A stretch of 64,000 bases of DNA from Gemmatimonadota bacterium (GCA_963666735.1 OY762926.1:2495319-2559318); one strand, 5' to 3'; shown: positions 35,906-43,849, counted from the stretch's first letter. Notes: generated by a model not told the origin, from the sequence alone. A program made the numbers and translations.

Positions 35906-36931
35906 ATGACTACCGAAACGGGGGAAATCCTCATGACCGGCCCGGCACGATCTTCGATCTCTCGCGGACTCGCCGTCGTCCTTTGCGGCGTGGCGGCTGC
36001 TGCAGCGGCTGCAGCGATTCCAGCGGCGGCGAACGCGGCTCAGGAGGCGGACGACCCGCCGTGGCGCTGGTCGGAGGAGCGCGTGTTCGAGGCCGTCAAC
36101 CGGGTGCGGGCGGGGCGCGACCTCAACCCGGACTCGTGGCCGGACGGCGGCCGCGTCGCCGTGCTGCTCTCCTTCGACGTGGACAACGAGACGGTCTGGC
36201 TGCGCAACGGCGACACCAACGTGGGGGGGCTCTCGCAGGGAGAGTACGGTTCGCGCGTCGCCCTCGGCCGCGTCGTGGACCTCCTCGACGAGTACGGGAT
36301 CGCGGCCTCCTTCTTCGGCCCCGCGCTCAGCTTCAGCCTCGCGCCGCACCAGATCGGGATGATCCAGGCCTCCGGGCGGCACGAGATCGGCGTCCACGGC
36401 TGGATCCACGAGCGCAACGCGACGCTCCCGCGCGAGGAGGAGGAACGTCTCCTGCGCATGGCCGTGGAGCGCATGACGGAACTCATGGGCGAACGCCCGG
36501 TCGGCTACCGCGCGCCGTCGTGGAACTTCAGCGACGCGACGCTCGACCTGCTGCTCGAGATGGACTTCCTGTACGACTCGTCCCTGATGGCGGACGACCG
36601 GCCGTACGAGATCAACGCGAACGGCGAGCCCACGGGCCTCGTCGAACTTCCGGTGGACTGGATCCTCGACGATGCTCCGCTCTTCAACCCCCTCGGCGAC
36701 CGCTACGCCAACCCGCGCGAGGTGCTTGAGGTGTACAAGGACGAGTTCGACGTGGCCTACGAGGAGGGGACGATGTTCCTCCTCACCATGCACCCGCACT
36801 ACATCGGGCACCGCTCGCGGATCGTCATCCTGCGCGAACTCATCGAGCACATGCGGTCGAAGCCGGGCGTGTGGTTCGGCACGCACCGCGACGCCGTCGA
36901 ATGGGTCCGAGCCCAAGCGTCGATGCCGTGA
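35906..36931 (+). CDS. Polysaccharide deacetylase (NodB-homology) family, secreted
   Basis: LSFDVDNET, HGWIHE motifs; signal peptide. Confidence 0.75.
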   Translation: MTTETGEILMTGPARSSISRGLAVVLCGVAAAAAAAAIPAAANAAQEADDPPWRWSEERVFEAVNRVRAGRDLNPDSWPDGGRVAVLLSFDVDNETVWLRNGDTNVGGLSQGEYGSRVALGRVVDLLDEYGIAASFFGPALSFSLAPHQIGMIQASGRHEIGVHGWIHERNATLPREEEERLLRMAVERMTELMGERPVGYRAPSWNFSDATLDLLLEMDFLYDSSLMADDRPYEINANGEPTGLVELPVDWILDDAPLFNPLGDRYANPREVLEVYKDEFDVAYEEGTMFLLTMHPHYIGHRSRIVILRELIEHMRSKPGVWFGTHRDAVEWVRAQASMP

Positions 36932-36964
36932 CATACCGGCGCCATGGGTATATGTTTTTATGTC

Positions 36965-37213
36965 ATGCGAACCACAATTCGGCTGGACGATGACCTCATG
37001 CGAGCGGTGAAGCGTCATGCGCTCGAGTCGGGAACGACCGTCACGGCCGTCATCTCGCAGTCGCTACGGGAGCGACTTCAACGGCACAGGAACCGGACTT
37101 CGAACCCGCCCACGCCGCTTTCTCTCGTAACCGCGGGGGAGGGCGGCCTGCTGCCCGGCGTCGACCTCGATGATTCCGCAGCCCTCATCGAACTCATGGA
37201 AGACGGCGTTTGA
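36965..37213 (+). CDS. vapB: VapB-like RHH antitoxin
   Basis: MRTTIRLDDDLMRAVKRHALESGTTVTAVISQSLRERL. Confidence 0.6.
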   Translation: MRTTIRLDDDLMRAVKRHALESGTTVTAVISQSLRERLQRHRNRTSNPPTPLSLVTAGEGGLLPGVDLDDSAALIELMEDGV

Positions 37214-37668
37214 TCCTTCCCGACGTCAACATCCTCATCTACGCCCATCGCCGCGATGCTCCGGACCATCGGCAATATCTCGAATGGCTGATCGCCGAGG
37301 TCGACTCCGATGCGGCGTTCGGGCTGAGCCCGCTGGTTCTCAGCGGATTCATCCGCGTGGTCACGCACCCGAAGGTCTTCAAGAGTCCGAGTATGCTGTC
37401 CGAGGCGACCGCGTTCGCGGAGCAACTTCGTGAGCGGCCCAACTGCATCGAGGTGACACCCGGCTCCCGCCATTGGGCCATCTTCCTGCGGTTGTGCCAT
37501 CAGGCCGGGACGAGGGGCAACCTGGTGCCGGACGCGTATCTGGCGGCGATGGCGATCGAGAGCGGATGCGAGTGGGTGACGACCGACCGCGATTTCAGTC
37601 GATTCGAGGGGCTGAAGTGGCGCCATCCGCTCCCAAGTCCGTTGTCGGTCATTGTTGCGCCGAAATGA
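37210..37668 (+). CDS. vapC: VapC PIN-domain toxin (ATGA-coupled)
   Basis: MILPDVNILIYAHRRD... Confidence 0.75.
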   Translation: MILPDVNILIYAHRRDAPDHRQYLEWLIAEVDSDAAFGLSPLVLSGFIRVVTHPKVFKSPSMLSEATAFAEQLRERPNCIEVTPGSRHWAIFLRLCHQAGTRGNLVPDAYLAAMAIESGCEWVTTDRDFSRFEGLKWRHPLPSPLSVIVAPK

Positions 37669-37833
37669 CCGACAAACCAGCTTGTCCGCCATGGGTGACC
37701 GGCAAACCCACACAGAATGCGAGGAGGAAGTCGTGGTGGCACGGATTCGACCCGGCCCCGGCGCCGCGGCGCGCGGCGTCGTCCCGGCGGCGGAACGAGT
37801 CTCGCCTCCGGCGCTCCCGCAAGGAGTCGGCTG

Positions 37834-38961
37834 ATGCCTCCGGTCCGCTACCACGCGGGTGCGTTTCCGCCGACATCGGAGGAATTTGACTGGCACGCGC
37901 TTCTGCCCCACCTCGGACCTGCGGCGGCTGCCGTCGCCCGATACGATGGCGTGCTCCAAGGCATTCCGAACTCGGGCGTCCTGCTGTCGCCGTTGTCGAC
38001 GCAGGAGGCCGTTCTCTCTTCGCGTATCGAGGGCACGCAGGCCACGATGACCGAGGTTCTGGAGCTCGAGGCCGGGGCCGAAGCTGAATCGCCGGAGCGC
38101 CGCGAGGACATCCACGAGATTCTGAACTACCGCCGGGCCATGTACGAGGCGGCGCGGATGCTGGAGACGCTTCCAATTTCCGGCCGCGTGATCCGCGGCG
38201 CCCACGCGGTGCTTCTGGACAGCGTGCGCGGAGCCGGAAGGTCGCCGGGGGAGTATCGCCGGGCGTCCAACTGGATCGGTCCCCCGGGGTGCGGCATCGA
38301 GGAGGCCCGCTTCGTGCCGCCCGCCGCCCACGAGATCCCGGACGCCATGGGCCGGTGGGAACGGTACGCCAACGAGGGTGCGGACGGGGTGCCGGACCGC
38401 TTGGTGCAGCTGGCCGTCCTCCATGCCGAGTTCGAGGCGCTGCATCCGTTTCTGGACGGCAACGGCCGGGTGGGGCGCATGCTCGTCCCCCTTCTGCTCT
38501 GGCAATGGAGAATGATCGAGCGCCCGCATCTCTACATCAGCGGATTTCTGGAGGCGCACCGGAACGACTACTACGACGCCCTGCTCTCCGTGTCGCGCGG
38601 CCGCGACTGGACGACATGGACCCTCTTCTTCCTGAGGGCCGTGCGTGCCCAGGCGGAGGAGAACCTGGCCAAGGCGAAGGGGATTCTGCAGCTGTACGAC
38701 GACCTGAAGAACCGAGTCCCCAAGATGACCCGGTCGCAATACGCGACGCTGGCGGTGAACTGGATGTTCGGGCGACCGATCTTCTCAAGCACCGATTTCG
38801 TGAAGAAGTCGGGCATTCCCGAGTCCACGGCGCGTCGCTTTCTCACGGTGCTGCGAGAGAACGACGTGATTGGGGAGCTCCTCCCGCCCGCCGGGCGGAG
38901 GGCCGCGCTGTGGGTCTTCCCCAGTCTGCTCAATTTGGCAGAGGGGCGGAAGGCGTTCTGA
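37834..38961 (+). CDS. fic: Fic family protein (AMPylase/filamentation), with Fic_N and C-terminal winged helix
   Basis: HPFLDGNGRVGR core motif; AAGGAG SD 7 nt upstream. Confidence 0.8.
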   Translation: MPPVRYHAGAFPPTSEEFDWHALLPHLGPAAAAVARYDGVLQGIPNSGVLLSPLSTQEAVLSSRIEGTQATMTEVLELEAGAEAESPERREDIHEILNYRRAMYEAARMLETLPISGRVIRGAHAVLLDSVRGAGRSPGEYRRASNWIGPPGCGIEEARFVPPAAHEIPDAMGRWERYANEGADGVPDRLVQLAVLHAEFEALHPFLDGNGRVGRMLVPLLLWQWRMIERPHLYISGFLEAHRNDYYDALLSVSRGRDWTTWTLFFLRAVRAQAEENLAKAKGILQLYDDLKNRVPKMTRSQYATLAVNWMFGRPIFSSTDFVKKSGIPESTARRFLTVLRENDVIGELLPPAGRRAALWVFPSLLNLAEGRKAF

Positions 38962-39098
38962 AGCGGAGCTGCGGGATCGCGGAGGCCACCGCGTTGTCGG
39001 TCACATGTGAGCAGCAAAACCGGTTGTTGCCCATCTAAGGCCAGAAGTGATCGACAAGATCGGGATCAGCCGGCGGCGATCTGAGGGCTCTGCTTCGG

Positions 39099-39312
39099 TC
39101 ATCCGGGACCGGCATCGAGCAGGTCGAGGATGAAGGCGAACTCGAAGGCGAGTTCCTCGTACTCCCGGTCCCGGCCGGAGCCGCCGCCGTGGCCCGCGTC
39201 CATGTGCGTCTTGAGGAGCAGGCGGTTCTCGTCCGTCTTCGTCGCGCGCAGCTTCGCGACCTTCATCTTCCCGTCCTCGTACCACGCCCGGCCCAGTTCC
39301 TGTCCGCACCGG
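39099..39312 (-). pseudogene. Degenerate partial duplicate of oligopeptidase B 3' end (two non-contiguous pieces joined: ~96% identical to 40971..41116 and 41506..41551)
   Basis: Direct nucleotide comparison within window. Confidence 0.6.
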
Positions 39313-39324
39313 CCTCGGGCCGCC

Positions 39325-39480
39325 AACCCGCCCACGCCGCTTTCTCTCGTAACCACAGCGGAGGGCGGCCTGCTGCCCGGCGTCGACCTCGATGATTCCG
39401 CAGCCCTCATCGGATCCGTGGAAGACAGCGTTTTGATCCCTCCCGACGGCAACGTCTTGGTCTACGCCCCACCATCAAGA
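39325..39480 (+). pseudogene. Partial duplicate (~90% id) of vapB 3' end / vapC 5' start (cf. 37096..37252)
   Basis: Direct nucleotide comparison within window. Confidence 0.55.
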
Positions 39481-39567
39481 CAATCGAGAACGTATTCGTA
39501 TCGGCCCAAGACAGCCAATCCAATCGTTACCGTGTCAGATGCACTCGGCGTCCAGCAAGATCTATCC

Positions 39568-40752
39568 TCAACCTGGGGCAATTTCGATCCGGTATTTTAT
39601 TATGCGTGGCAAGTCGAACATGGAGGCCTCAAGAAGCCATACGTAGTCGGGCGTCGCCAGTAAGGGACGCTGGTAATCGGCGAGGGTGACTCTAGCCAAG
39701 GCACCCTCACTCTGCGTCGCAAGGACCCAGTTCGCCTCTCGAGACGCCGACCGTTCACGCCCGATCCAGATTGCGCCCGCTGATCCTTGGATCAAATCGT
39801 TGAGCGGTGGATAGTATCGTGGAACATAGATTGCCTCTCGCAATTGACGTGCTATTTCCTGCGTTGGCCTAGCCGCCTGTCCACGACTTCCGGGTCGCGT
39901 TGAATTCTGGCGACCCAACTCATCCACCACACTGTCCACGGCCGCAGCCGTCAAACGCATCGGCCGGTAACGCAGCGCCACGCTGGTGTCGCGTCGGCCA
40001 TCAAAGTGATACCGCTCCACCACAATAAGTGCTTCGTCGTCCGCTTCGACAACTGCCCGCGCCGCCAGCGCGTAACGTTCCGTTCCTCCGAACGCCACTG
40101 GGGCTCGTTCGCTGAACGGTTGCTGCAATCTCGCGACGCCGCCAGTGCGCCCAGAGGGGCGCAACAGCATGTGTTCGTGCCACACTTCGCTCGCGACTAG
40201 TGAATCCAGCAGTCCTTCGTTCGCATGCCATCGCCACCATAGCACCCGACCCCGCCCACTCGGATCGCCTGACACGCCATTCAGAGGCAGCGGAGATCCG
40301 ACGATGGAACCATCCGGTGCCAATCTCAGACGTTGACCAGTGGCCCGCCCCGGAACGTCCGGAGTGACCGTTTCCAAGAGAGCACCATCTGGTAAGAACC
40401 GCGTCACGCGACCAAGTAAGGGGTCCGAAGTCCAGACTGTGTCGCCGTGGGCACCTAGGCCGTCAAGCCACCGAAATTCCCCCGGCCCATCACCCGCCCG
40501 TCCAATCTCCCTTCCGTACGACCCATCCCTGTCGAATACGAGCACTTCCGTTTGTCCCCCCAACAGTACTGTTCCATCCGACAGTTCCCAGAGATACGAC
40601 GGTCGCCTGCTGAGCGGAGCGTTCAAGACGTCTATCGCCGCGACTTCGACGAGCCTGGCCGAGGGCAATTCCTCTTCGTGCGGTATGGCCTGACCGAGAA
40701 CCGGAGCAGCCCATACGCTCAGCGGAGCCAAGCGTGCCAGCCGGATGCACAT
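39568..40752 (-). CDS. Secreted beta-propeller (NHL-like) protein, paralog of 3707..4978, in lower-GC patch
   Basis: Signal peptide MCIRLARLAPLSVWAAPVLG; family resemblance; upstream part of the 39568..41526 track ORF is out-of-frame overlap with ptrB. Confidence 0.5.
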   Translation of the reverse strand: MCIRLARLAPLSVWAAPVLGQAIPHEEELPSARLVEVAAIDVLNAPLSRRPSYLWELSDGTVLLGGQTEVLVFDRDGSYGREIGRAGDGPGEFRWLDGLGAHGDTVWTSDPLLGRVTRFLPDGALLETVTPDVPGRATGQRLRLAPDGSIVGSPLPLNGVSGDPSGRGRVLWWRWHANEGLLDSLVASEVWHEHMLLRPSGRTGGVARLQQPFSERAPVAFGGTERYALAARAVVEADDEALIVVERYHFDGRRDTSVALRYRPMRLTAAAVDSVVDELGRQNSTRPGSRGQAARPTQEIARQLREAIYVPRYYPPLNDLIQGSAGAIWIGRERSASREANWVLATQSEGALARVTLADYQRPLLATPDYVWLLEASMFDLPRIIKYRIEIAPG

Positions 40753-40949
40753 CCGCAGCCTACAAGCGGTAGGCCGAATCACAGCGAAATCTGCGCAGTC
40801 AACGCTCGGACCCGCCTCGCCGCCTCGACGTCGTAACGCCGCGTCGCTTCGTCCAACAGCTCGATCACGGGTAAGTGACTCCAACGTCTCTGGTTGATCG
40901 CGCTCACTCCGGGTTGGCAGAGTAAGATGGAGCGGTCGACCTATCAAGT

Positions 40950-43130
40950 TTAGCGCGGCGCAGTCTCCTCCAGCAGGTCGAGGATGAAGGCGAACTCGAA
41001 AGCGAGTTCCTCGTACTCCCGGTCCCGGCCGGAGCCCCCGCCGTGGCCGGCATCCATGTGCGTCTTGAGGAGCAGGCGGTTCTCGTCCGTCTTCGTCGCG
41101 CGCAGCTTCGCGACCCACTTCGCCGGCTCCCAGTACTGGACCTGCGAGTCGTGGAGACCCGTCGTGACCAGCAGGTTGGGGTAGTCCTTCGCCTCCACCT
41201 GGTCGTAGGGGGAGTAGGAGAGCATGTAGCGGTAGGACTCGAGTTCGCTCGGGTTGCCCCATTCGTCCCATTCGAACGTCGTGAGCGGAATCGACTCGTC
41301 CAGCATCGTCGTCACGACATCGACGAACGGGACGTGCGCGACCACCCCCCGGAACAGTTCCGGCCGCATGTTCACGACCGCGCCCATGAGCAATCCCCCG
41401 GCGCTTCCGCCGCGCGCGAAGAGCTTCTCCGGGCTGGTGTAGCCCTGCGCGACGAGGAAGTCCGCCACGTCCACGTAGTCGGTGAAGGTGTTCTTCTTGT
41501 TGAACATCTTCCCGTCCTCGTACCACGCCCGGCCCAGTTCCTGTCCGCCGCGGATATGGGCGATCGCGTACACGAACCCGCGGTCGAGGAGGCTGAGGCG
41601 GGTGGAGGAGAAGGTGGGCTCCATGCTCGCCCCGTATGAGCCGTAGGCGTAGAGGAGGAGCGGGTTGTCGCCGTCCTTCTCGAGACCGCGCCGGTAGACG
41701 ACGGACACGGGGACTTCCACGGCGCCGTCGCGGGCGGGGGCGTGCAGCCGTTCCACCACGTAATCCCCCCGGTCGTAGCCGCCCAGGACCTCGTCCTCCT
41801 TGAGCAGCGTACGCTCGCGCGTGGACATGTCGTAGTCGTAGACCGAGCGCGGCGCGGAGAGCGAAGTGTACCCGTAGCGCAGGATGTTCGTGTCCAGTTC
41901 GGGGTTGGCGGACAGCGAGGCCAGGTAGGCCGGCTCGTCAAAGGCGATCTCGTGCTCTTCCCCTTCCCACTCGCGGACGCGCAGGCGGGTGAGCCCTCCC
42001 TCGCGCTCCGAGAGCACGAGGTAATCCCGGAACAACTCGAACCCCTGCAGGAACACGTCGCTCCGGTGCGGGACGACGGTCTCCCACTGGTCCGTCGCCG
42101 TCCTCTCGACGGGGGTCCGCATGAGCTTGAAGTTCTCGGCCCCGCCGAGGTTGGTGCGGATGTAGAAGTGGTCCCCGAGGTGATCGAAGCGGTGCTCGTG
42201 CCCGCGCTCGCGCGGGAGGAAGAGGGTGAACTCGCCCTCGGGATCGCTAGCATCGAGGAACCGGTGTTCGTCCGCCAGCGTGTGGGAGGAGGAGATGACG
42301 ATGTACCGCTTCGACTTCGTCTTGCGGACGCGGGAACTGAACTCCTCGTCGTCCTCCTGATAGACGAGCACGTCGTCCGCCGGATCGGCGCCCACGCGGT
42401 GCCGGTAGATCTGGTACGAGCGCAGGGTGCCGGAGTCCCGCCGCGCATAGAAGAGCGTCCGGTTGTCCTCGGCCCACACCATGTTGCCGGAGGCGCCCTC
42501 GATGGACTCCGGGTAGTCCTCTCCCGTGTCGAGATTCCGGATGCGGATGGTGTAGATGCGGCGCCCGCGCGTGTCCTCGGCCCACGCCATCAGGTCGCCG
42601 GCAGTGCTCACCGCGGGAAAGGCGGAGTAGTAATCGTGTCCTTCGGAGTGCGCGTTGACGTCGAGGATGACCTGCTCGGTCGCGTCGAGCGATCCGCGCT
42701 TCCGGGCGTAGATCGGATAGTCCCGGCCGTCCTCGGTGCGGCGGTAGTAGAAGAAGTCGCCCTCCCTCACGGGCACGGAGAGGTCGCTCTGCTTGATCCG
42801 GCCCTTGATCTCCTCGAACAGCTCCGCCTGGAGACCCCCGGTGTGCGCCATTAGCGCATCGGTGTAGGCGTTCTCCTCCTCCAGATACTCGATGACGGCC
42901 GGGTTGTCGCGCTGGTTCAGCCAGTAGTAATTGTCGATGCGGGTGTGCCCGTGCGTCTCCAACTGTTCCGGGATCACGCGTGCGACGGGGGGCGCGACCC
43001 CGGCGTCGGCCGGGGACTCCGGGGCGGGGTCGGCACCCTCCCCGGTGCAGCCGGCGGCCTGGACGCTCACGGCGAGCAACGCCGCGACGAGGGGGAAACG
43101 GTCACGGCATGCTGCCTTCGCTCGCGGCAT
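40950..43130 (-). CDS. ptrB: Oligopeptidase B (S9A prolyl oligopeptidase family), lipoprotein
   Basis: Full-length; GGSAGGLLMG serine elbow; beta-propeller + catalytic domain. Confidence 0.9.
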   Translation of the reverse strand: MPRAKAACRDRFPLVAALLAVSVQAAGCTGEGADPAPESPADAGVAPPVARVIPEQLETHGHTRIDNYYWLNQRDNPAVIEYLEEENAYTDALMAHTGGLQAELFEEIKGRIKQSDLSVPVREGDFFYYRRTEDGRDYPIYARKRGSLDATEQVILDVNAHSEGHDYYSAFPAVSTAGDLMAWAEDTRGRRIYTIRIRNLDTGEDYPESIEGASGNMVWAEDNRTLFYARRDSGTLRSYQIYRHRVGADPADDVLVYQEDDEEFSSRVRKTKSKRYIVISSSHTLADEHRFLDASDPEGEFTLFLPRERGHEHRFDHLGDHFYIRTNLGGAENFKLMRTPVERTATDQWETVVPHRSDVFLQGFELFRDYLVLSEREGGLTRLRVREWEGEEHEIAFDEPAYLASLSANPELDTNILRYGYTSLSAPRSVYDYDMSTRERTLLKEDEVLGGYDRGDYVVERLHAPARDGAVEVPVSVVYRRGLEKDGDNPLLLYAYGSYGASMEPTFSSTRLSLLDRGFVYAIAHIRGGQELGRAWYEDGKMFNKKNTFTDYVDVADFLVAQGYTSPEKLFARGGSAGGLLMGAVVNMRPELFRGVVAHVPFVDVVTTMLDESIPLTTFEWDEWGNPSELESYRYMLSYSPYDQVEAKDYPNLLVTTGLHDSQVQYWEPAKWVAKLRATKTDENRLLLKTHMDAGHGGGSGRDREYEELAFEFAFILDLLEETAPR

Positions 43131-43158: not shown

Positions 43159-43623
43159 TCAACAGCCTTGGGTCTCCATGATTCCGGCCGGCGTCTCCGA
43201 CCTCGTTCGGAAGGGGTTGATCACGCGGAGGCCGCCGAAGTCATGTCCGTGCTGCAGGTCCTCGGTCAGGAGGATAGAGCACTCGCACGATTGGGCGGCG
43301 GCGACGATGAGCGCGTCCCACCAGGATATGGAGTGGCGATCCTGCAGCAACCAGGCGCGTTCCAAAACCCGTGTGTCGGTCGCCACCGGCCGCCACGCCG
43401 TGAGATCGCGAACGATTTCACGAACCTCGGGAGGGTTGAACGCGAGACGCCCCTTCCGGGTGAGGGTCACGTAGAGTTCCTGAAGAACCTGAAAGCTCAG
43501 GCGCCCGGTGCGCGAGCGCGCAAGGAAAGCGATCCATTCCGCGGCGCAAGCCTGCTTCGTGAGATCGCTCTCATCATGCCGGTAGACGAAGATGTTCGTG
43601 TCAACGAAGACCTGAGCGATCAT
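43159..43623 (-). CDS. vapC: VapC PIN-domain toxin
   Basis: MIAQVFVDTNIFVY... Confidence 0.75.
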   Translation of the reverse strand: MIAQVFVDTNIFVYRHDESDLTKQACAAEWIAFLARSRTGRLSFQVLQELYVTLTRKGRLAFNPPEVREIVRDLTAWRPVATDTRVLERAWLLQDRHSISWWDALIVAAAQSCECSILLTEDLQHGHDFGGLRVINPFRTRSETPAGIMETQGC

Positions 43624-43849
43624 ATAACTCCTCTCGAGTGGGCCTCCGGCCTTCGGGCCAGTCGATCTTGCGAGGCTTCCGAGCGAGGTAACGCTTCATC
43701 GCGACCTCGTAGTCGTCCTCTCGGCGCCGCGTCCGTTCCAGTAGCTCGCAGATCCATCTCGAGACGCTCCGGTCGTCCTCGGCCGCCTTGACCCGTAGCC
43801 ACCGGGCGACATCTTCGGGCAGTGTGATGGTGATGTTCTTCACGTCCAC
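43601..43849 (-). CDS. RHH/CopG-like antitoxin
   Basis: MDVKNITITLPEDVARWLRVKAAEDDRSVSRWICELL. Confidence 0.6.
   Translation of the reverse strand: MDVKNITITLPEDVARWLRVKAAEDDRSVSRWICELLERTRRREDDYEVAMKRYLARKPRKIDWPEGRRPTREELYDRSGLR

Follow-up and report, generated by a model that had tools for sequence, protein, structure and literature searches.

The variable region between the convergent polysaccharide deacetylase (deAc) and ptrB genes of a Gemmatimonadota bacterium (GCA_963666735.1; OY762926.1:2495319-2559318, a stretch of 64,000 nucleotides here called the window) encodes a VapBC toxin-antitoxin pair, a Fic protein and a putative beta-propeller protein (propeller1), and carries between fic and propeller1 a mosaic of gene fragments (39099-39469; Table 1). 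We interpret this mosaic as the joint of two alternative haplotypes of one hypervariable islet, made by the import of about 2.1 kb into a resident of the vapBC-fic-ptrB type, and put the probability of this reading at roughly 0.8. A genome scan with PtrB identifies the window as Candidatus Palauibacter, Gemmatimonadota (order Palauibacterales, marine/sponge PAUC43f group; PMC10469786). The rearrangement is ordinary genome evolution of a known kind and represents no new kind of system. It is unusually well documented, a base-resolution case in which both parental haplotypes and the pre-insertion state have been recovered from nature, and it shows an uncultured marine and sponge-associated bacterium reshuffling an islet of toxin-antitoxin, Fic and propeller modules without mobile-element machinery. 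The case bears on strain-level recombination in metagenome-assembled genomes, and for annotators it means that the ptrB and vapB/C fragments are pseudogene remnants and that the 3' end of ptrB is itself mosaic.

Anatomy and allele origins of the mosaic

Comparison of 39000-39620 with the whole window, by repeat search and self-BLAST, recovers three repeat pairs, all of them direct. Positions 39115-39261 match the 3' end of ptrB (40969-41115) at 142 of 147 nucleotides (96.6%, E = 3e-66), 39264-39307 match an internal ptrB segment (41505-41548; 44/44, 100%, E = 2e-17), and 39325-39469 match the junction of the 3' end of vapB with the 5' end of vapC (37103-37246; 130/145, 89.7%, with one extra T, E = 2e-50). 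The first-pass annotation of this DNA had reported all three, with coordinates right to within 2-10 nucleotides, although its figure of ~96% for the second understates a perfect match; the AT-richer filler of ~90 bp that it placed after them is likewise present (98 nucleotides, 51% GC). At the protein level the likeness to VapB reaches, in diverged form, back to about 39307 (HRPRAANPPTPLS in the mosaic, HRNRTSNPPTPLS in VapB), so the 17 nucleotides before 39325 are probably vapB-derived as well and the ptrB piece directly abuts vapB-derived sequence, with which it shares GC alone. This illegitimate joint (39307/39308) thus has a microhomology of 2 nucleotides. The vapB' part starts at about codon 48 and is followed by a vapC' 5' stub of 37 nucleotides; the extra T shifts the frame by +1. 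Of the filler, 39559-39567 is common to contig L081 by BLAST, with ~20 nucleotides more, to ~39540, in a MAFFT alignment, and a homolog search with the remainder found none.

The displaced ptrB copy lacks the equivalent of 41116-41504 (389 nucleotides), a deletion bounded by the imperfect repeats CACTTCGCCG and CATCTTCCCG and containing 2 nucleotides of filler; the net loss of 387 nucleotides is in frame. The resulting minus-strand open reading frame (ORF), 39099-39452, reads ...GQELGRAWYEDGKM-K-VAKLRATK...ILDLLDAGPG-stop. Its 117 residues still match Peptidase_S9 (E = 4e-7) and keep the GH of the catalytic histidine region; the intact frame and the match are probably coincidence.

The two ptrB 3' ends were compared with those of relatives from the genome scan with PtrB and of strain-level contigs. 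All five differences within the 147-nucleotide piece are changes on the side of the intact gene: the remnant has G, G, G, C and G where the intact gene has C, A, C, G and A. The remnant states match L001, L006, L090 and L094-L098, and agree with those of all unfused fic haplotypes; the intact states are partly shared with L081. Similarly, the remnant runs into the tail ...LLDAGPG-stop, which L001 and L090 also have, and beyond it is collinear with the downstream DNA of these two, while the tail of the intact gene, ...LLEETAPR-stop, is that of L002, L004 and L081. The remnant differs from the intact ptrB of L090 at one of 191 positions; the intact ptrB of the window departs from L090 at 13 positions in 40969-41436 and at none from there to 41736. 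The segment 39099-39261 is the original ptrB 3' end, still beside fic as in unfused strains. What had been taken for a duplicated flank is therefore the end of the resident gene, displaced by a propeller module that brought its own ptrB 3' end. Since the window resembles L090 over both flanks (98.2-98.4% identical) and over most of ptrB, the foreign tract extends from 39308 to ~41436 and the resident was of the vapBC-fic-ptrB type. The reverse import, of fic into a resident propeller haplotype, was rejected on the same grounds, the foreign DNA being confined to 39308-~41436 and the resemblance to L090 elsewhere, on either flank and in most of ptrB, reaching 98%. A breakpoint near 41100, suggested by a sliding-window comparison with L001 alone, was also abandoned when the closer genome L090 moved it to 41436-41548.

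The other parental type is found among the nearest homologs of propeller1, P0001 (95% identical) and P0002 (87%), both encoded just downstream of ptrB, in L081 and L082, respectively. L081 is collinear with window 41130-39559 at 91.3% through the ptrB 3' end (tail EETAPR), the spacer and propeller1, and beyond propeller1 runs into a convergent gene for a second propeller (propeller2). In L082 and L083 the order is ptrB 3' end, spacer, propeller1, vapC 5' stub, full vapB and deAc. Because vapC is already truncated against propeller1 there, these contigs represent the donor-type haplotype that the scar predicted. The vapB/vapC fragment, first attributed to copying from the resident vapBC, thus belongs to the incoming haplotype. 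It has ~10 private changes in 145 nucleotides in addition to its frameshift. Its nearest relative shows 15 differences over the 145 positions, compared with 1 in 191 between the ptrB remnant and L090 (Fisher p = 2e-5), indicating that the two fragments have different histories. To judge from these substitution counts, the contrast fits a vapB/C fragment that is older and was already decaying in the donor haplotype, and a ptrB remnant that is recent.

Our first model was a plain intragenomic tandem duplication, from about vapB codon 48 to about ptrB nucleotide 598, followed by reciprocal deletions and decay and involving no DNA of another strain. Microhomology-mediated tandem duplication joints occur in bacterial genomes, and the mosaic resembles them: the joint of ptrB-internal to vapB-internal sequence, with the parental orientations kept and a microhomology of 2 nucleotides, is the expected end-to-start joint, and the direct repeats are prone to later deletion and gene conversion. 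However, the two units here are different alleles from two strains and not copies of one origin, and the model was dropped once the ptrB tails proved to be such. The two 3' ends differ both in tail (DAGPG, EETAPR) and in downstream DNA, each corresponding to a different lineage; their five differences all fall on the intact copy's side, the allele states dividing along haplotype lines; divergence is much greater in the vapB/C fragment than in that of ptrB; propeller1, from which the second unit would have to come, is absent from the closest genomes (L090, L094-L096); and each parental haplotype exists on its own in nature. We consider tandem duplication improbable.

The mosaic is shared by a second strain. 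L088, a 3.1-kb SPAdes contig from another European Nucleotide Archive (ENA) sample, is collinear with window 37159-39872, including both joints, with 16 mismatches and no gaps. As an independent assembly of a second strain has the same mosaic, the mosaic is not an assembly artefact. Some grounds exist for suspecting a chimera, in which two coexisting strain haplotypes were misjoined by the assembler or by a chimeric read, in that the window is from a metagenome-assembled genome and the parental haplotypes co-occur in related samples, the unfused L096 and the fused L088 coming from consecutive ENA analyses. Yet L088, with its different sample, different assembler, 16 differences and extra insertion sequence, agrees with the window at every base of both joints; the 2 nucleotides that the joints share are too few for assembler bridging; and the vapB/C fragment has its own substitutions and frameshift. 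A chimera is accordingly the explanation to which we give the least credit, and only a trace of that.

The L088 mismatches are clustered, with nine in vapC, three at 37744-37758 and four in the 147-nucleotide remnant. At those four positions the L088 remnant has the states of the intact copy (4 of the 5 sites; clustering P = 0.009), a pattern that indicates probable gene conversion between the ptrB copies in one of the two strains. The nine vapC differences all lie within 97 nucleotides (37470-37566), suggesting recombination over a short tract of the toxin gene; fic (1128 nucleotides) is identical. A scan of metagenome contigs with the 22-nucleotide joint TTCCTGTCCGCACCGGCCTCGG was uninformative, three contigs matching over only ~23 nucleotides, as expected of chance hits. 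A diversity-generating retroelement was rejected as the source of the substitutions between the repeat pairs, since these involve all four bases and are mostly transitions, not adenine-specific, and the neighbouring ORFs contain no reverse transcriptase domain.

Possible routes of import and their closest parallels

The resident would have had the order deAc-vapB-vapC-fic-ptrB and the donor deAc-vapB-vapC'stub-propeller1-spacer-ptrB, with an incoming segment of ~2.1 kb from vapB codon ~48 to roughly ptrB nucleotide 470-598. At one end, homologous exchange inside ptrB, between 41436 and 41548, would account for the donor 3' end and C-terminal tail of the intact gene. At the other, the segment would have been joined illegitimately to resident ptrB nucleotide ~598, through the 2-nucleotide microhomology and without filler. 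This would have stranded the ~600-nucleotide ptrB 3' end of the resident beside fic as a pseudogene, to be trimmed, later or concurrently, by the 389-nucleotide deletion. The product is fic, resident ptrB(1-598), the joint, donor sequence (vapB', vapC' stub, filler, propeller1, spacer and ptrB nucleotides 1 to ~470-598) and what remains of resident ptrB. This order is out of reach of a linear two-ended replacement, because the anchor (resident ptrB nucleotides 1-598) is both kept and replaced, i.e., duplicated; it can arise only through a circular intermediate, from a sister copy or by a template switch. Thus a donor fragment may have circularised and integrated by a single crossover (Campbell-type); alternatively, replication may have switched template to the donor at ptrB nucleotide 598 and returned via the ptrB homology, with the same product. 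The comparisons show the architecture, the allele origins, the direction of import, the natural occurrence of both parental haplotypes and, through the second strain, that the joint is real; the molecular route, and whether the deletion preceded or followed the fusion, we infer.

Several points tell against an import of this form. The donor is known only from short contigs of 83-91% identity, with no near-identical donor seen. The donor tract in ptrB (13/468 relative to L090) does not exceed the patchy background significantly in divergence, so that its foreign origin is argued from the tail and a few linked sites. The illegitimate joint can be placed no more finely than 39307-39324, the vapB linker being diverged there, and the circle and template-switch routes would look the same in sequence. 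Finally, the states of the L088 remnant would require an additional gene-conversion event in one strain, or a slightly different history.

In form, the closest parallel is the integration of e14 or phage 21 in Escherichia coli icd, which leaves the C-terminal fragment pseudogene icdC (Hill et al. 1989, as described in PMC13626634). As in icd, the insert supplies a housekeeping gene with a replacement 3' end while the original 3' end survives beyond it, and the copies are direct repeats that differ at a few, mostly silent sites, recombination between which would restore a chimeric intact gene. The likeness extends to a displaced C-terminal fragment with an element-borne replacement 3' end (PMC13626634), and might suggest that an integrase carried a small mobile element into the ptrB 3' end, the scars being att duplications. 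But the insert (39308-40949) contains no ORF or domain of an integrase, excisionase or transposase, only the propeller gene and pseudogene fragments. The window has no integrase or transposase near the fragments, in agreement with the first-pass annotation, to which none was visible, and for L090 and L094, whose identity to the window is 97-98%, the gene tables list nothing of the sort within ~7 kb on each side. The duplicated segment is ~600 nucleotides long and not a short core, and no fixed att core is found: the breakpoints vary (nucleotide ~598 in the window, 176 in L090), as does the distal propeller1 joint (L081, L082, window). We conclude that integrase is not involved, and regard the mobile-element history as very improbable. 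In place of a prophage, the insert consists of ~1.7 kb of chromosomal DNA from a sister strain, which homologous exchange and one illegitimate joint would have brought in.

By inferred process, the nearest relatives are the C-terminal displacement of Rhs proteins and the displacement of effector-immunity modules of the Vibrio cholerae type VI secretion system (T6SS), which have been explained by homology-facilitated illegitimate recombination (PMC5361080, citing de Vries & Wackernagel 2002 and Meier & Wackernagel 2003). In both, a conserved gene provides a one-sided homology anchor and the other end is illegitimate, older modules or 3' fragments are pushed aside as orphans, and recurrence at one locus produces stacked arrays. 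The islet has the one anchor (tract end 41436-41548) and a joint at which GC alone is shared. It differs in that the peptidase gene whose 3' end acts as anchor has no relation to the cargo, and in that a propeller gene and toxin-antitoxin debris are carried in place of toxin tips. Moreover, the resident DNA between anchor and joint has not been replaced: the illegitimate joint lies inside the anchor, beyond the crossover, so that the anchor is duplicated and no resident DNA deleted.

States of the islet among relatives and recurrence of stacking

Simpler states of the locus (empty; vapBC only; vapBC with a fic remnant; vapBC with propeller2) are found in nine related species. In L002, L003 and L004 the islet is empty, with deAc and ptrB convergent and 2-70 nucleotides apart; as outgroups L010 and L014 are empty too, this state is ancestral. 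Four species (L005, L007, L008, L018) have vapBC without fic, L001 has vapBC and a fic 3' remnant, most of fic being deleted, and L006 has vapBC-propeller2-ptrB. The unfused resident type, with fic 138 nucleotides from an intact ptrB of 725 codons, is found in L090 and L094-L101: L094-L096 have vapBC-fic-ptrB without the scar, L097-L101 have the same with vapBC partly deleted, and L090 has vapBC-propeller2-ptrB'-debris-fic-ptrB. Since they occur separately across relatives, vapBC, fic and the propellers each form a module of their own within a single hypervariable islet. The suggestion that the fragments are the footprint of illegitimate recombination at an acquired variable region is thereby borne out, but vapBC and fic are not the single cassette that was proposed to have caused the scars, given vapBC without fic in four species and unscarred vapBC-fic-ptrB in many strains.

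Two deletions in vapBC, equivalent to window 36933-37111 and 37361/37536-37630, are present in L097, L098, L100 and L101; the first runs from the deacetylase stop codon to vapB nucleotide 37112, and the second lies inside vapC. The toxin-antitoxin pair is thus decaying in parts of the population. A fragile site in vapB shared with the mosaic was considered because the deletion in L097-L101 ends at 37112; the joints differ, and we attribute the proximity to coincidence.

Haplotype stacking of the same kind has occurred independently at another breakpoint, as judged from L090, which has its own ptrB 3' remnant (176 nucleotides, with 96% identity to the intact copy there), flanked by propeller2 on one side and by the debris that precedes fic on the other. 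In L090:4935-5797 this remnant is followed by ~690 nucleotides of debris, a vapC 3' remnant and fic; by eye, the debris includes C-termini resembling those of a methylase (…FGEYRTRRYVLEAFDQL…) and of IstB. Recombination between vapC copies could have produced the window from an L090-like state. The breakpoints differ (nucleotide 176 in L090, ~598 in the window), and the distal propeller1 joint is not the same in L081, in L082 and in the window. Such events thus recur without site specificity, arguing against a site-specific recombinase. A more far-reaching possibility, which we hold to be unlikely, is that the ptrB 3' end serves as a recurrent, integrase-free docking site at which Palauibacter strains stack and swap toxin-antitoxin, Fic and NHL-like propeller modules. 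If so, a direct repeat of the anchor would remain after every acquisition and would make the newest module reversibly excisable by RecA, a primitive cassette switch at the population level, of which the four-site conversion tract of L088 and the stacking at a different breakpoint in L090 would be traces.

The mosaic might alternatively be kept for a function, as an antisense RNA to the vapB-vapC junction or to the 3' end of the ptrB mRNA, or as the 117-residue PtrB C-terminal peptide. Read-through from propeller1 would yield the former antisense transcript and read-through from fic the latter, and a promoter/terminator scan found no strong terminator between the neighbouring genes and the mosaic; its only hits, a promoter-like site upstream of vapB and a hairpin at 39241-39260, are both within chance expectation. 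In addition, the 389-nucleotide deletion is in frame, the ORF keeps its Peptidase_S9 match, and the mosaic is conserved in two strains. These strains, however, are almost identical, which makes the conservation uninformative, and an in-frame deletion has a one-in-three chance and is unremarkable. An Rfam scan of 36800-41200 at E <= 1 gave no match, the vapB/C part shows neutral-looking decay and a frameshift, and similar remnants (L090) and deletions (L097-L101) look like plain decay. We think a functional mosaic highly unlikely.

Genes of the islet and its borders

Table 1. Features of the deAc-ptrB islet and its borders (window coordinates)
Feature	Coordinates	Strand	Evidence and remarks
Polysaccharide deacetylase (deAc)	35906..36931	+	Pfam Polysacc_deac_1; conserved left border of the variable islet
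vapB (ribbon-helix-helix, RHH, antitoxin)	36965..37213	+	Pfam RHH_1, VapB_antitoxin; alternative start 36944
vapC (PIN toxin)	37210..37668	+	Pfam PIN; NCBIfam TIGR00028, 146.7 bits (cutoff 73.6)
fic	37834..38961	+	Pfam Fic_N (90.6 bits) and Fic (58.1 bits), both above cutoff; 375 aa, intact
Native fic-ptrB intergenic DNA	38962..39098		Collinear with L001 (96.6%) and near-identical L090
Displaced original ptrB 3' end	39099..39261	-	Stop codon, tail ...LLDAGPG, last ~49 codons
Filler TT at internal deletion	39262..39263		Sequence and self-BLAST
ptrB internal piece, far end of displaced copy	39264..39307	-	Equals 41505-41548, 44/44
vapB' 3' half and vapC' stub	39308..39469	+	89.7% to 37103-37246; left end of imported haplotype
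Filler	39470..39567		98 nucleotides, 51% GC
propeller1, DUF5128/NHL-like	39568..40752	-	Pfam DUF5128, homologs, structure model, composition
Spacer travelling with propeller1	40753..40949		~90% identical to L081
Imported 3' end of intact ptrB	40950..41436	-	Tail ...LLEETAPR
Resident part of ptrB	41437..43130	-	Pfam Peptidase_S9_N, Peptidase_S9; closest to L001 and L090 throughout
Second PIN/RHH pair	43159..43849	-	Profile search; immediately upstream of ptrB

The first two genes of the islet (36965-37668) have the organization of a type II toxin-antitoxin system of the VapBC family, a small antitoxin gene upstream of a PIN toxin gene that it overlaps by 4 nucleotides (TTGA). The VapB of L082 begins at the equivalent of MRTT. 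The fic gene is preceded by a ribosome-binding site (AAGGAG, 37821-37826), and its translation contains the core motif HxFx(D/E)GNGRxxR as HPFLDGNGRVGR, predicting an AMPylase of the Fic/DOC family; at 158 bits, below the 550 required by the NCBIfam SoFic equivalog, it is a family member but not that ortholog. Both the exact 375-residue Fic protein and the exact VapC are already on record. The whole ptrB (40950-43130, minus strand) encodes an S9 oligopeptidase-B-like protein of 726 residues; an exact look-up of this protein found no record, probably owing to the choice of start codon.

The propeller1 gene is compositionally foreign, with 60.8% GC and a GC content at third codon positions (GC3) of 0.61, compared with 0.85-0.92 in the ptrB, deacetylase and phosphoenolpyruvate carboxykinase (PEPCK) genes. 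The first-pass annotation was right about this, although the gene is less AT-rich than the ~55% GC it was given; its description as a paralog is not supported, as no paralog of propeller1 is detectable by tblastn within the window; in other strains the locus is taken by propeller2, a distant relative. At E <= 0.01 the only Pfam match of propeller1 is DUF5128, a family of six-bladed beta-propellers (23.6 against a cutoff of 22.9, over one stretch of 27 residues), with no match to an NHL-repeat profile; all of its homologs carry PF17170. Its structure model is of moderate confidence (predicted local distance difference test, pLDDT, 69.7; predicted template modelling score, pTM, 0.70), and the best PDB matches in a fold search are BF0058 and the NHL domains of Brat/TRIM (E ~2e-9, target-normalised TM 0.56-0.65). 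In L088, an IS630-like element is inserted at CTAG (window 39869-39872) inside propeller1, which indicates that propeller1 is dispensable in that strain. The element (L088:2715-3114) encodes a transposase N-terminus, MKRYLVELEAGEREALGAITRKG..., with a weak NCBIfam IS630 match, and has no copy in the window.

Members of the propeller family at 55% identity, in more distant genomes, have the order ptrB-RHH-PIN-propeller, followed by genes for a KAP NTPase and BrxL; given this shared placement, the tie of the family to the spot downstream of ptrB is old. In these 3.9-Mb genomes (L084-L087) the spot is a defence islet (KAP NTPase, BrxL-like ATPase), and in L085 ptrB is called in three pieces, reflecting frameshifts or assembly errors. 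The alternative occupant of the islet, propeller2 (L081:1538-2662, L006:12269-13399), has 374-376 residues and 62% GC, and is distant from propeller1 (36% identity over 88 residues, E = 6e-8).

Upstream of propeller1, a short minus-strand frame (40779-40907) ends in ...RRYDV(E/G)AAR(R/Q)VRA(L/V)TAQISL-stop and is conserved between the window and L082 (~600-745), in a spacer that otherwise differs; it may represent either a small leader ORF or what is left of a gene. On the other side of ptrB, the RHH gene of the second PIN/RHH pair is found in L001, L003, L005, L006 (twice) and L007. Among the relatives from the genome scan, tblastn detected its PIN partner in L003 only; the gene tables of L090, L094 and L096 call it as well. 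With this pair present or absent among relatives, ptrB is variable on both sides.

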